Part shown: piece by piece, positions 2,996 through 9,093 of the stretch
Layout: the number at the start of each line of letters is the position of its first letter
Position numbering within the stretch: position 1 is the stretch's first letter
Assembly: GCA_011364905.1 (NCBI GenBank)
Contig: RDNZ01000004.1
Location: 1-64,000, forward strand
DNA from: Candidatus Thorarchaeota archaeon
GTDB lineage: Archaea; Asgardarchaeota; Thorarchaeia; Thorarchaeales; Thorarchaeaceae
DNA: 64,000 bases
Direction of reading: 5' to 3'
Made by a program: the position numbers and the translations under genes
The notes under the pieces: model-generated
Seen by the model: the letters and a program-made list of their open reading frames with translations, nothing else
The model's database searches: none
What the model was told of the DNA's origin: nothing

Positions 2996-3037
2996 AGCCA
3001 AATGGGTCAAATGACCCGTGGCTCATTATTTCACTGC

Positions 3038-3526
3038 TCATTCTTTTTGAATTGTGTTTAGGATTACAGTCATGTCCGGACATGTTCCGACTTTGTCCGA
3101 CAAGACCTCAATATACCGAATGATACCCTTCTTGTCAATGACGAAGAGCCCTCGTTTGCCATATCCCTCATCGGGCACCATACAGTCATACTTGAGAGTT
3201 ACATCTCCAAGTGGGTCCCGGTCAGATAGTATTGGGAAGCCAAGACCATGCATGCTTTGGGACCAAGACTTGTTCTTGATGGTTGAATCCATATTGATGC
3301 CTATGACTTGAGTATCCAGTTCCTTGTACTTCTTAAGATTCTCTTTGTACAATATGAGATAGTTCTTGCATGAATCGTTGAGGTCGCCCGGATTGAGGGC
3401 CAATAGCACATTGGACTTCCCTCTGAAGTCCGAGAGACGTACCATATTCCCATCCTGATCGGGAAGCTCGAACTCGGGTGCTTCAGCTCCAACATTGAGA
3501 CACACATTATTCTGACGAAGAATCAT
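3038..3526 (-). CDS. Peroxiredoxin-like redoxin (AhpC/TSA, AhpE/BCP-like)
   Basis: Motifs VGAEAPEFELPDQDG, LSDFRGK, FPILSD and KRGLFVIDKKGIIRY. Active-site region is PGDLNDSC. Confidence 0.85.
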   Translation of the reverse strand: MILRQNNVCLNVGAEAPEFELPDQDGNMVRLSDFRGKSNVLLALNPGDLNDSCKNYLILYKENLKKYKELDTQVIGINMDSTIKNKSWSQSMHGLGFPILSDRDPLGDVTLKYDCMVPDEGYGKRGLFVIDKKGIIRYIEVLSDKVGTCPDMTVILNTIQKE

Positions 3527-3610
3527 AGTTTTTCACAATATAGTAGTATTAACTATAGCAAATATGCCTTTTGTAAGATACAAAACCATTTGAAATAAGT
3601 AACCATAATA

Positions 3611-3635
3611 CTTAAATAATGTAATACTATTACAT
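3611..3635 (+). promoter_or_regulatory. TATA box with adjacent inverted repeat (putative operator)
   Basis: cttaaata (3611-3618) is immediately followed by the palindrome ATGTAAT-act-ATTACAT (3619-3635). Confidence 0.5.
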
Positions 3636-3687
3636 ATTACTTGCCAACCGTAAGAGTTCGCGACGGTTGGAGGAGATGCAAGGAAAA

Positions 3688-3795
3688 ATGGCTGATGAGA
3701 ATTCGAGCAACGAGCCCTTCATCATGAGAAGGAATCGGAATCCGAGACTCAGATCGCTTGAGTCCCTGTACTACGACTATGCTCGCATCAAGTGA
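3688..3795 (+). CDS. Micro-peptide A, 35 aa (39 aa from ATG 3676): MADENSSNEPFIMRRNRNPRLRSLESLYYDYARIK
   Basis: Hand translation. Lies downstream of a TATA box, an 8-bp hairpin (3644-3670) and GGAGGAG. Confidence 0.5.
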   Translation: MADENSSNEPFIMRRNRNPRLRSLESLYYDYARIK

Positions 3796-3815
3796 GCAAG
3801 TGGAGGTGAAGTGTA

Positions 3816-3908
3816 ATGGCACTAGCAAAGAATGAAAAGAAATTGAACAAAGCCAAAAAGGCTTGGACAACTGAAGCACTGGCTTATGCTTGGCTCTACA
3901 ACAAGTAG
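3816..3908 (+). CDS. Micro-peptide B, 30 aa: MALAKNEKKLNKAKKAWTTEALAYAWLYNK
   Basis: Hand translation. Full archaeal SD GGAGGTGA (3802-3809) ends 6 nt before the ATG. Two hairpins follow. Confidence 0.6.
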   Translation: MALAKNEKKLNKAKKAWTTEALAYAWLYNK

Positions 3909-3945
3909 GTTGGAGTCGTAGCATCAGCCATGTGGATCAACCTAC

Positions 3946-3993
3946 AATGAGTCTGTGCCCGTGTCTGGTGCGGGCACACTCATTCTCATTTTG
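3946..3993 (+). terminator. Stem-loop followed by a pyrimidine-rich tract after the micro-peptide pair
   Basis: aatgag-tc-tgtgcccg / cgggcaca-ctcatt, then ctcattttg. Confidence 0.5.
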
Positions 3994-4047
3994 TTGCCTG
4001 CTGATTTTGTGGGGGGATTTTATACCCCGAGTGATGCACTGAAGACT

Positions 4048-4389
4048 ATGGGCGTGCAAGTCAAGACTCATGCTCCGTCGTACATGGTCTATGATATACG
4101 AGGAATCTCTGAACCTGATGAGGTCTACGAGGCTGCAACGAAAATAGCAGATGAAGTCATGGGAGGGATTGAGCGACTATCATTTTCGAACACGATTGAA
4201 ACAGCCACTCTTTTCATAACGAATACTGGCGCGCAACTCATTCTCCTTGCTCATTCATTCGATGAATCTCTGATTGCTTCTGCATTTCGAAGCACACTGA
4301 AGGGTGTTTCATACGACCCTGAAACTGGATATATCCAGCGATACGTGATTCCGATTCTTGATGTTGATCTTCCAGCAGGACCTACCTAA
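4048..4389 (+). CDS. Hypothetical protein
   Basis: The ORF track starts at 3955, inside a hairpin. ATG 4048, about 25 nt after TTTATA, is the more plausible start. Confidence 0.6.
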   Translation: MGVQVKTHAPSYMVYDIRGISEPDEVYEAATKIADEVMGGIERLSFSNTIETATLFITNTGAQLILLAHSFDESLIASAFRSTLKGVSYDPETGYIQRYVIPILDVDLPAGPT

Positions 4390-4448
4390 ATCGATAGGCT
4401 TAACCGAATATTCATTGAAATCAATACATTCGCGAGGTGCTCGTTGAA

Positions 4449-5498
4449 ATGGAGTTTGAGTTAAAGCCATTTGATTTCGCAAAGGCAACTGGGAAAGAGT
4501 GGAGAATGTACCATGATTACAGGTACAAGCGCTATCCTGAAGCACTTCCAGGCGATCCCATTCTAGCTGATAATGTTGTTGAAGAAAACCTTAGAAATAT
4601 GCTCGACGAGTTCGACTTGAAAACCCAGTTTGTGTATTTGAAGGACCAGATTGTAGAACCCGTTGGTATGGTCCGAGTAGCTGCACTCAAGGAGTCATCC
4701 GCTTCTTACGAAGAGAATAAACATCTTTGTCAAGTGATCAATCTGGAACTACTAACGCCATATCGCGGAAAAGGGATTGGGCGGCGACTGCTTGAGGTTG
4801 TACTTAACTTTGCCAAAGAGCATGAAAAGTCCATCATTGTTGCTCAAGTGACGGAGGATGATGGAAAACGGTTCATTAGAAAACTTAAGGCCAAAGAAGC
4901 TCTCTCAGCAGTTGAGAACCGTTTAGACTTAACCAAGCTGGACTGGAACATGGTCAATGAATGGGCTGAGGAAGGACCTGTCCGATCCCCTGCTTCTAAG
5001 ATTGAGTTCTTCCAAGACGTGCCTGAGGAAATCATCGAGGAATACTGCAGAGTGTATTCTGAAGTGGGAAATCAAGCACCCCGCGAGGACCTTGAGGTTG
5101 GAGACTTCATTTTGACTCCGGAAAGGCGACGCCAACACGAACAATCTCGGAAAGCCGGTGGTGGTGTCTGGATCACTGCAATCACACGAGAACCCAATGG
5201 AGACGTTTCAGGTCTCACAGAGGTCATATACATGCCATCCAAAGACCCGCTTATCTCTCAGGATCTGACTGGTGTTCCAGAGAAGTATCGAGGCTCTGGT
5301 AAAGGAAAGTGGTTGAAAGCCATCATGCTCCAAGAGATACGGAAACGCTTTCCGACCGTCACTTCCGTGGTCACTGGAAATGCAACATCAAATGCGCCAA
5401 TGTTATCCATCAACAACCGGCTTGGGTTCAAGCCCCATAAAGAGGTCATCTTAGCTCAGATGACAACTGAAGACCTAGAGAGTTATCTCGAAAAGTAA
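4449..5498 (+). CDS. Tandem-domain GNAT acetyltransferase
   Basis: Two acetyl-CoA motifs (YRGKGIGRRLL and YRGSGKGKWLK) and C-terminal TGNATSNAPMLSINNRLGF. Confidence 0.88.
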   Translation: MEFELKPFDFAKATGKEWRMYHDYRYKRYPEALPGDPILADNVVEENLRNMLDEFDLKTQFVYLKDQIVEPVGMVRVAALKESSASYEENKHLCQVINLELLTPYRGKGIGRRLLEVVLNFAKEHEKSIIVAQVTEDDGKRFIRKLKAKEALSAVENRLDLTKLDWNMVNEWAEEGPVRSPASKIEFFQDVPEEIIEEYCRVYSEVGNQAPREDLEVGDFILTPERRRQHEQSRKAGGGVWITAITREPNGDVSGLTEVIYMPSKDPLISQDLTGVPEKYRGSGKGKWLKAIMLQEIRKRFPTVTSVVTGNATSNAPMLSINNRLGFKPHKEVILAQMTTEDLESYLEK

Positions 5499-8703: not shown

Positions 8704-8948
8704 AATTAGCGCAAAGACACAAATTCCAATGCACTTTTGAGCCTTTTCAATGTGTAAAAACTATTCTAAATGCTTCTAGTTAAATAATAAGCAATATTAT
8801 CTCTTGAAATGGCACCGTAAGAGCTTTTATTCCTTTATTATTCTGATAAATGATTTTGGTTACTTGGGTTGTTTGAACGAATATTTTGAATGTATTTGAT
8901 TCCCAACTAATATTGCAGTCTAGGCAAGATTGCAGGATGCAAGAACGA

Positions 8949-9068
8949 ATGGCGACAGAGGTGAAACAGCCAACAACAGGACCAACACACAAAGAGCTCA
9001 CCGAAGAAGAGGAACAGGAGCTCGCGATGTTGGCGGAGTTGGCGAGGATTTACTATGATGGTCCATAA
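8949..9068 (+). CDS. Micro-peptide C, 39 aa (43 aa from ATG 8937): MATEVKQPTTGPTHKELTEEEEQELAMLAELARIYYDGP
   Basis: Follows an AT-rich promoter region and a hairpin (8914-8934). Sequence is protein-like and helical. Confidence 0.55.
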   Translation: MATEVKQPTTGPTHKELTEEEEQELAMLAELARIYYDGP

Positions 9069-9093
9069 CAAAGACCATTGATGAAAACTGGAC

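Follow-up and report, generated by a model that had tools for sequence, protein, structure and literature searches.

The window considered here is a stretch of 64,000 nucleotides from a Candidatus Thorarchaeota archaeon (assembly GCA_011364905.1, contig RDNZ01000004.1, positions 1 to 64,000 of the forward strand). Close to its beginning lies a compact unit on the plus strand, in which two consecutive genes for micro-proteins, here termed peptides A and B, are enclosed by promoter elements and a terminator-like hairpin. The original prediction, made from the letters alone, had described it as an unannotated, self-contained and regulated transcription unit for two micro-peptides; a reading of the sequence, the list of open reading frames (ORFs) and an inverted-repeat scan recovered all the elements that it had listed in their places. 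The stretch occurs once in the genome, and 19 of the 28 genomes of the genus have a counterpart with 70-83% nucleotide identity.

The promoter region (3600-3618) comprises a GTAACC..AATAC block and a TATA-like box, CTTAAATA (3611-3618), whose sequence and position are consistent with a role as an archaeal TATA element; the whole region is near-invariant across 17 orthologues. Directly 3' of the box is an operator-like palindrome, ATGTAATA-c-TATTACAT (3619-3635), with the core GTAAT-N3-ATTAC. This is followed by a hairpin of 8 bp in the 5'-untranslated region (5'-UTR), CCAACCGT/ACGGTTGG (3644-3651 with 3663-3670), the 3' arm of which abuts a Shine-Dalgarno (SD)-like GGAGGAG (3669-3675). The latter lies 12 nt 5' of the start codon of A and is presumably used for ribosome binding; its GAGGAG is kept in most orthologues of the 17-orthologue alignment. 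The gene for A (3688-3795, with the stop at 3793-3795) encodes a peptide of 35 aa, MADENSS...LESLYYDYARIK. It is followed by the SD of B, GGAGGTGA (3802-3809), in which GAGG is invariant across the 17 orthologues and GGAGGT is separated from the ATG by 8 nt, and by the gene for B (3816-3908), which encodes the 30-aa peptide MALAKNEKKLNKAKKAWTTEALAYAWLYNK. Downstream of B is a 3'-UTR element of 23 nt (3914-3936), whose sequence is kept in all orthologues, and a terminator-like hairpin, ATGAGT..GTGCCCG / CGGGCAC..ACTCAT (3947-3983), with a T-rich run, TTCTCATTTTGTT, reaching to 3995, at which transcription would end. The predicted hairpin GTAGGTTG/CAACCTAC (3905-3912 with 3938-3945) is also present; its conservation did not hold, the stem being kept in few orthologues and the loop sequence being conserved instead.

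Purifying selection on two micro-protein genes and the family of peptide B

Both ORFs are intact in 15-17 orthologues. In the 17-genome alignment the annotated frame is free of in-frame stops in either gene, as against 17 and 52 stops in the other two frames of A and 19 and 37 in those of B, and the ratio of nonsynonymous to synonymous differences (pN/pS) is lowest in that frame (A 0.62, B 0.32). The variability of B is highest at the third codon position (53 vs 25 and 18), the indels within both ORFs are all multiples of three (3 nt and 9 nt in A), and parsimony on the tree gives a ratio of nonsynonymous to synonymous substitution (dN/dS) of 0.29 for B (p 3e-15) and 0.53 for A (p 5e-5). Preservation of the frames in the orthologues, which the original prediction had put forward as a check, is thereby seen in all three respects, i.e. 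no in-frame stops, in-frame indels only and dN/dS below 1, and these comparisons of aligned sequences show both frames to be under purifying selection. The same orthologues bear on the start of A, for which a length of 35-39 aa had been given: the conserved ATG is the one at 3688, yielding 35 aa, whereas the ATG at 3676 required for a longer form is in frame in this genome only, through a 1-nt insertion. In the spacer between A and B the orthologues differ by indels that include non-multiples of three, which break an ORF of 95 aa on the minus strand (3637-3924); as it is not conserved across the orthologues, this candidate was dropped.

Peptide A is found in 18 of the 27 other genomes of the genus and in none of 58 genomes from 15 other genera, always as a single copy and always beside B. 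Neither peptide was matched in Pfam, NCBIfam, PHROGs, PADLOC, the PDB sequence profiles or the ESM Atlas. Among gene calls from public metagenomes the exact sequence of B is present without a name, and that of A was not found; the description of the unit as unannotated is only partly true. For B, AlphaFold2 predicts two helices: a basic one (residues 3-16) and an aromatic, amphipathic one that follows an S-T cap (residues 19-28), the latter with a predicted local distance difference test score (pLDDT) of 87. The prediction of an A-B complex scored 0.03, a value that gives no answer and is uninformative on binding.

A profile of B was searched in six frames over 301 Asgard genomes. It matches 60 of the 76 Thorarchaeaceae genomes (15 of the 16 genera sampled) and none of the 224 genomes from 29 other Asgard families. 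A single genome has as many as nine matches, often arranged in tandem ~10 nt apart, and the matches listed are all open frames, mostly of 31-42 aa. Across 15 genera the paralogues hold the peptide motif with different codons. When 1.84 billion proteins were searched with the family profile, 61 matches were obtained, nearly all of 29-46 aa and either unnamed or labelled 'hypothetical'. The family has no relative in Pfam, NCBIfam, PHROGs, PADLOC or the PDB, and we found no paper or database entry that describes it. Thus, the suggestion of a small-protein family proved right for B, and the family is multicopy. A further micro-peptide encoded in the window (8938-9069; MQERMATEV...LARIYYDGP, acidic, 43 aa) was not matched by the A or B profile at E up to 10 in a genome-wide scan of small ORFs and is, by that test, not a member.

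In their canonical form the units of this family contain three micro-genes. The first (P1) encodes a peptide of the form MAL(T/A)TNN...STxA(L/I)xYAYxYRR; the second (P2) one of the form MALAK...STxA(L/I)xYAYxYR; the third (P3), which starts 5-6 nt after the second gene, an acidic peptide of 34-40 aa ending in EEVLx(W/L)EAT. Each SD is placed within the last codons (CGG AGG TAA) of the preceding gene, and a hairpin with a T-run closes the unit. The conserved parts of the family peptides are the termini, with a variable middle, and in B the conservation includes the N-terminal MALAK. In comparisons of profiles (hhalign) B matches P2 with E 3e-19 and P1 with E 3e-17 at a probability of 99%; by sequence it is clearly a member of the MALAK...STxALxYAYxYRR family.

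The position of A is different. Against the P1 and P2 profiles it reaches E 0.025-0.1 at a probability below 2%, and it has no paralogue in its own genome. The kinship of A and B that had been proposed from their C-termini retains the agreement in motif register (TLdSLYYdY vs sTdAlayAY), but paralogy is not recovered by the profile comparison, and A can only doubtfully be called a relative of B. Likewise, of the shared C-terminal motif that had been proposed, the core [DE]-x-L-x-Y-x-aromatic is conserved and the terminal K is not. A PqqA-like reading of the motif as E-x-x-x-Y was also considered and dropped, since the paralogues often have K, R, N, Q or F in place of the acidic residue.

The unit described here departs from the canonical form in two further respects. 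The third micro-gene is missing: all that is seen is a remnant of six codons, ATG-TGG-ATC-AAC-CTA-CAA-TGA (3931-3951), of which the ATG is absent in several orthologues, and the conserved 3'-UTR element occupies its position. Moreover, stop and SD are not coupled: A ends with ATC AAG TGA, the SD GGAGGTGA comes 6 nt after it and the ATG of B 20 nt after the stop. The genome itself (G000) has five further units of the family, all on the minus strand of their contigs: C23:19645-19848(-), C17:31757-32230(-), C11:19967-20174(-), C53:14461-14668(-) and C78:68011-68121(-). Those on C11, C17, C53 and C78 have a common promoter palindrome, AGTCACA-N3-TGTGACT, together with GTGACC half-sites. On contig C10 (G000:C10:61473-62070), the operator of these paralogue units, GTCACA-N3-TGTGAC, and then a TATA box precede a gene that is cut by the contig end and whose product shows a sub-threshold match to Bactofilin (21.7 bits vs a cut-off of 27.9).

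RNA elements and a shared operator core

The 5' hairpin is paired in 82% of the cells of the alignment as compared to 72% in shuffles, 0 of 500 of which were as high; it displays compensatory changes at four pairs, and its loop varies in length. In the present genome the loop (3651-3663) reads UAA-GAG-UUCG-CGA and is kink-turn- or K-loop-like, with a 3-nt bulge, tandem G-A/A-G and a UUCG-capped stem. By eye this reading fits only ~6 of the 17 orthologues, and a kink-turn is not claimed.

The longest inverted repeat of the region has one arm at the start of A and the other in the 3'-UTR. One arm, AUGGCUGAUG (3688-3697), consists of the start codon of A and codons 2-4; the other, CAUCAGCCAU (3922-3931), lies inside the conserved 3'-UTR element and is its exact complement. 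Over the 17 genomes 96.5% of the cells of this long-range helix are paired, as opposed to 13-55% when one arm is slid, and 0 of 500 shuffles were as high. There are three compensatory pairs and eight G-U cells: in three genomes a change from GCU to ACU in A is accompanied by one from GCC to GUC, and in one other genome GAU to AAU is accompanied by AUC to AUU. RNAalifold recovered the helix independently on two alignments, and the energy of the duplex is -15.1 kcal/mol. The helix core AUGGCUG/CAGCCAU is also kept in units of a second type (G004, G013:C52) and in a unit with a truncated A (G013:C4). The canonical paralogue units have no 5'-3' helix above shuffled controls and no 5' hairpin of this kind. 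The alignments thus show the start-codon region of A and the 10-nt element in the 3'-UTR to be complementary and co-varying. A reading at the DNA level, as an inverted repeat or mobile cassette, was rejected because the repeat starts at the ATG of A, with the promoter outside, and because the G-U cells pair only on the plus-strand RNA.

The 3'-UTR element has a second potential partner, namely codons 22-29 of B (3877-3902). Covariation lends no support to the resulting local hairpin, perhaps since the protein motif of B fixes the 5' arm. A third means of presenting the 3' element, in this case in a loop, would be the hairpin 3905-3945. A second long-range pairing, of CUACGACU (3771-3778) with AGUCGUAG (3914-3921), is 79% paired and has no covariation; it may be one source of the constraint on the synonymous sites of A discussed below. 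In the terminator-like hairpin, eight of the 10 consensus pairs have compensatory changes (16 genomes), and the fold of the whole transcript has a z-score of -4.8. A small hairpin inside A, CCUUC/GAAGG (3716-3732, codons 10-15), shows a few compensatory changes among orthologues in the RNAalifold consensus. No match to Rfam 15 was obtained at E up to 10 in the interval 3000-4600, and a tRNA search found none in the region.

At the level of transcription, the palindrome next to the TATA-like box is kept in 13 of the 17 orthologues. In its 15-nt form it occurs only once in the genome; 0.13 such sites would be expected in the window if one mismatch is allowed. Its core, GTAAT-N3-ATTAC, has four sites in the genome, which is about the chance number, and the count alone is hence uninformative; three of the four sit just 3' of TATA-like boxes. 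The scan of the genome for the operator, another check that the original prediction had proposed, yielded the core at two other promoters, each conserved in 19 of 21 genomes. The first belongs to a gene for a 115-aa protein (G000:C6:69492-69836(-)) and carries the palindrome GTAATACTATTAC around 69889, in the arrangement TTTATAT, 7-9 nt, GTAATA(C/G)TATTAC. The second belongs to a gene for a 178-aa protein of no known family (G000:C33:15818-16351(-)); here GTAATAC-GTAATACTATTAC follows a TATA box around 16378, and the site is conserved as GTAATAC-GTAATAnnnATTAC. The sequences show the core to be common to the promoters of the unit, the 115-aa gene and the 178-aa gene, which agrees with the prediction of a palindromic operator, and the 178-aa gene is probably a third member of the same regulon.

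The phyletic patterns of these genes point in the same direction. In one genome of the genus (G001) the unit and an orthologue of the 115-aa gene are absent, and the promoter of the 178-aa gene has no operator. In a tally over the genus, 20 genomes have both the unit and the operator-bearing 115-aa gene, two have the unit only, two the gene only and four neither; the Fisher p of 0.01 overstates the case, since the genomes are related and the sample is not independent. Inspected by eye, the 115-aa protein has a β-strand and a helix with 'SRSEAV', in the manner of ribbon-helix-helix proteins. It has several paralogues per genome, some of which are encoded next to ~330-aa proteins with a domain in common with the 178-aa protein. 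The Atlas clusters closest to a protein of this regulon carry Thorarchaeota labels.

Genomic setting, proposed mechanism and alternatives

Upstream of the unit, on the opposite strand, is a peroxiredoxin gene (3016-3491; AhpC-TSA, E 3e-28). Downstream is a gene for a 113-aa protein (4048-4389, plus strand) with its own conserved TATA box, ATTTTATAC (4017-4025), located 24 nt 5' of a leaderless ATG at 4048. Of the 27 other genomes of the genus, 24 have this gene, which also occurs in three further genera. Its product has no Pfam or NCBIfam match; the AlphaFold2 model is of an α/β protein (pLDDT 78) without a convincing fold match in the PDB (best E 0.03). Beyond it lies a gene for a tandem GNAT acetyltransferase of 353 aa (4437-5498, plus strand; Pfam Acetyltransf_1 E 3.7e-9, the second GNAT half being weak). 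The GNAT, which had been placed just downstream of the micro-genes, is indeed present, but it is not adjacent: it lies 530 nt downstream, and the separately promoted 113-aa gene intervenes. In several relatives the nucleotide match begins at the promoter of the unit, at ~3595-3606. In G001 the peroxiredoxin gene and the 113-aa gene are separated by a spacer of only 135 nt with no unit; the unit looks like an insertion between the two. A mangrove metatranscriptome (X20) contributed a single contig, 100% identical to the peroxiredoxin gene (3016-3491) and not covering the unit, so that it is uninformative on the expression of the unit either way; the library may contain carried-over DNA.

We consider it probable, though well short of certain, that the unit is an autonomous operon of two cistrons, each for a cytosolic micro-protein, and a genus-specific offshoot of the three-micro-gene operon family of Thorarchaeaceae. 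Its autonomy is suggested by the conserved TATA box and leaderless start of the following 113-aa gene, and the picture of a self-contained, regulated two-peptide unit in the original prediction accords with the conserved promoter, operator and terminator, the selection on both frames and the separate promotion of the next gene. Transcription would start at the base of the 5' hairpin, ~25 nt past the TATA box, and produce an RNA from ~3640 to ~3990. A repressor bound to the palindrome would shut the promoter; the most likely candidate is the 115-aa protein, which would be autoregulated and ribbon-helix-helix-like. On the finished mRNA the 3' element would pair either with the coding tail of B or with the AUG of A, and would mask the latter unless held by the tail of B. 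By this means ribosome traffic on B could set the frequency of initiation at A and make the yield of A depend on that of B; in which direction this coupling would act is not decidable from the sequence. The products are likely to be short helical peptides, with a basic N-terminal helix and an aromatic, amphipathic C-terminal helix, that probably bind a larger partner: the predicted two-helix form of B points to a partner binder rather than an enzyme. A more specific extension of this account is that the mRNA is a translation-sensing switch that fixes the ratio of an antagonist-agonist pair of micro-proteins, within a small, genus-specific regulon controlled by a ribbon-helix-helix repressor; this we offer as a tentative possibility and judge to be more doubtful than probable.

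Several observations weigh against parts of this account. With respect to the RNA, the thermodynamic model prefers the local hairpin in this genome, with a minimum free energy of -122.0 kcal/mol as against -118.3 kcal/mol when the long-range helix is enforced, and gives the latter a pairing probability of only 2%. With respect to A, selection is weak, and the synonymous sites of its 3' half are unusually conserved (synonymous diversity, pS, 0.27-0.35 vs 0.58 in B), which suggests that part of the conservation of A lies at the RNA level. In G012 (L150, C35, 1100-1400) A is a pseudogene, with the ATG gone and the frame broken, and B is divergent; in G013 (L041, C4, 1470-1640) an internal deletion leaves an A of seven codons, with B and the 3' element retained. 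Hence, A appears to be dispensable in some lineages. In the G002 orthologue B starts with CTG rather than ATG. With respect to the operator, three or four orthologues carry direct repeats of GTAATAC instead of the palindrome. The 115-aa protein shows sub-threshold similarities to the N-terminus of NikR (residues 6-42, E 0.044) and to AbmR (22.6 bits vs a cut-off of 160), has no Pfam match and relates to an Atlas RHH_1 cluster at only 0.79; its role as repressor of the unit is a guess from sequence features.

Five other explanations were weighed, and each is at odds with at least one tested feature. The first, which we regard as unlikely, is that these are exported cationic peptides, similar to phenol-soluble modulins or leaderless multi-peptide bacteriocins, which would leave the cell through a dedicated pump and target membranes or other cells. 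This would suit the net charge of B (+5), its predicted helical and amphipathic form and the tandem arrays of family members. It would also suit one paralogue class in which an MFS_3 transporter, a 'transmembrane secretion effector', stands in place of P3, with its gene 5 nt past the last micro-gene; in the C17 unit a gene for a 446-aa MFS_1/MFS_3 transporter begins at this distance. However, there is no transporter near the unit in the window, and most paralogue units end in the acidic third micro-gene and a terminator rather than in a pump. Furthermore, A has a net charge of just +2, and both peptides are hydrophilic and low in hydrophobic content.

A second explanation takes A and B as cis-acting leader peptides, whose translation, perhaps with nascent-chain stalling at the aromatic C-termini, would control read-through past the hairpin and T-run into the 113-aa and GNAT genes. 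The unit is directly 5' of the 113-aa gene in 17 of ~19 loci, the C-termini are tyrosine-rich and the 3' element is capable of switching between two pairings, as might be expected of such a device. Nevertheless, the 113-aa gene has a conserved TATA box and a leaderless start of its own, and five genomes of the genus (including G001, G007, G024 and G041) and three other genera have it but not the unit. The second-type units (G004, G013:C52) sit elsewhere in the genome, and paralogue units often face a convergent gene. The selection on B spans the entire peptide, including the N-terminal MALAK. Taken together, these features make a leader function quite unlikely.

A third possibility, already raised in the original prediction, is that the peptides are precursors for modification, comparable to ribosomally synthesized and post-translationally modified peptides (RiPPs), with the Tyr-rich C-terminus being acetylated or cross-linked by the GNAT or by another enzyme. 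Short tandem peptides with an aromatic motif and an acetyltransferase gene in the vicinity are what first commends it. Yet only about half of the orthologous loci have the GNAT after the unit, with the 113-aa gene in between, and the family units have no conserved neighbour of the radical-SAM, YcaO, P450 or protease type. Conserved termini with a variable middle are the opposite of a leader joined to a hypervariable core, and no NCBIfam precursor model matches. The link to the GNAT has therefore been abandoned, and we consider this class of precursor improbable.

The pairing of the 3' element with the start-codon region of A also brings to mind a module of the type I toxin-antitoxin kind, in which the mRNA for a toxic peptide would be kept inactive by fold-back of its 3' end on the translation start. 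Comparable long-distance 5'-3' interactions silence the full-length aapA1 mRNA of Helicobacter pylori (PMC5416894) and, through the fbi element, the hok mRNA (PMC9841398). Against this, a hydrophobic membrane segment is missing from both A and B, the minus strand is without any conserved feature and shows no evident conserved antisense promoter or RNA, and the unit is single-copy, stably syntenic and not mobile, which together render a toxin-antitoxin module very improbable. As for a structured non-coding RNA with two fortuitous ORFs, to which the strong fold of the transcript, the covariation in three helices and the partly constrained synonymous sites of A might be ascribed, the clear codon-position pattern and low dN/dS of B, the open frames in 17 genomes beside other frames full of stops, the retention of the motif with different codons across 15 genera and the want of an Rfam match leave it with very little probability.

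The unit is of interest in several ways. Micro-proteins are largely missing from archaeal annotation, and the Thorarchaeaceae-restricted family to which B belongs has neither a name nor a Pfam model nor a structure. The unit also displays the evolution of such an operon: the first gene has been replaced or reshaped and the third lost, with an RNA element that pairs with the first start codon in its place. Should the helix work as proposed, it would represent a concrete and mutable case of translational control dependent on the 3'-UTR in archaea, and, if the switch proposal were true, archaeal translation would for the first time be seen to be controlled by a defined, co-varying 5'-3' helix of an mRNA. 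The shared operator leads to a testable regulon of three promoters with a candidate repressor.

Relationship to known systems

The closest known relative is the canonical three-micro-gene operon. The unit resembles it in size, tandem layout, possession of its own palindromic promoter, terminal hairpin with T-run and taxonomic range, and B matches the P1/P2 profile over its full length. It differs in that the first gene, A, is genus-specific and not recognizably P1 (E 0.025); in that the third gene is lost and the genes do not overlap through stop and SD; in its operator, which is GTAAT-N3-ATTAC as opposed to AGTCACA-N3-TGTGACT; and in its possession of a 5' hairpin and of the helix between the start codon and the 3'-UTR.

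At the level of the products, there are precedents for micro-proteins that bind a larger protein, such as sP26, which interacts with glutamine synthetase in Methanosarcina mazei, AcrZ and MgtS. The peptides studied here are of the same size class, are encoded by dedicated small genes and are under purifying selection; they have no sequence relation to these precedents, and the family of B is, unlike them, multicopy and tandem.

At the level of the RNA, the likeness to the hok and aapA1 mRNAs lies in a short 3'-terminal segment of the mRNA that pairs with the distant initiation region of a gene for a peptide of ~30 aa. Those systems are bacterial, whereas the present one is archaeal. Here it is the start codon rather than the SD that would be masked, two cistrons share the mRNA, and the 3' element has an alternative, local partner within the second of them; there is neither an evident antisense RNA nor a hydrophobic toxin. 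Genetic work in haloarchaea has demonstrated an interplay of 5'-UTR and 3'-UTR in translational control, though no base-paired helix was defined (Brenneis and Soppa, 2009; PMC2636863). In both cases the 3'-UTR of an archaeal mRNA appears to be involved in the control of translation initiation, whereas the present case provides a defined, co-varying helix that is predicted from sequence alone. The conserved micro-protein operon is of a known kind, and the unit described here is a derived variant of it, bearing an RNA feature that sets it apart from the canonical units.

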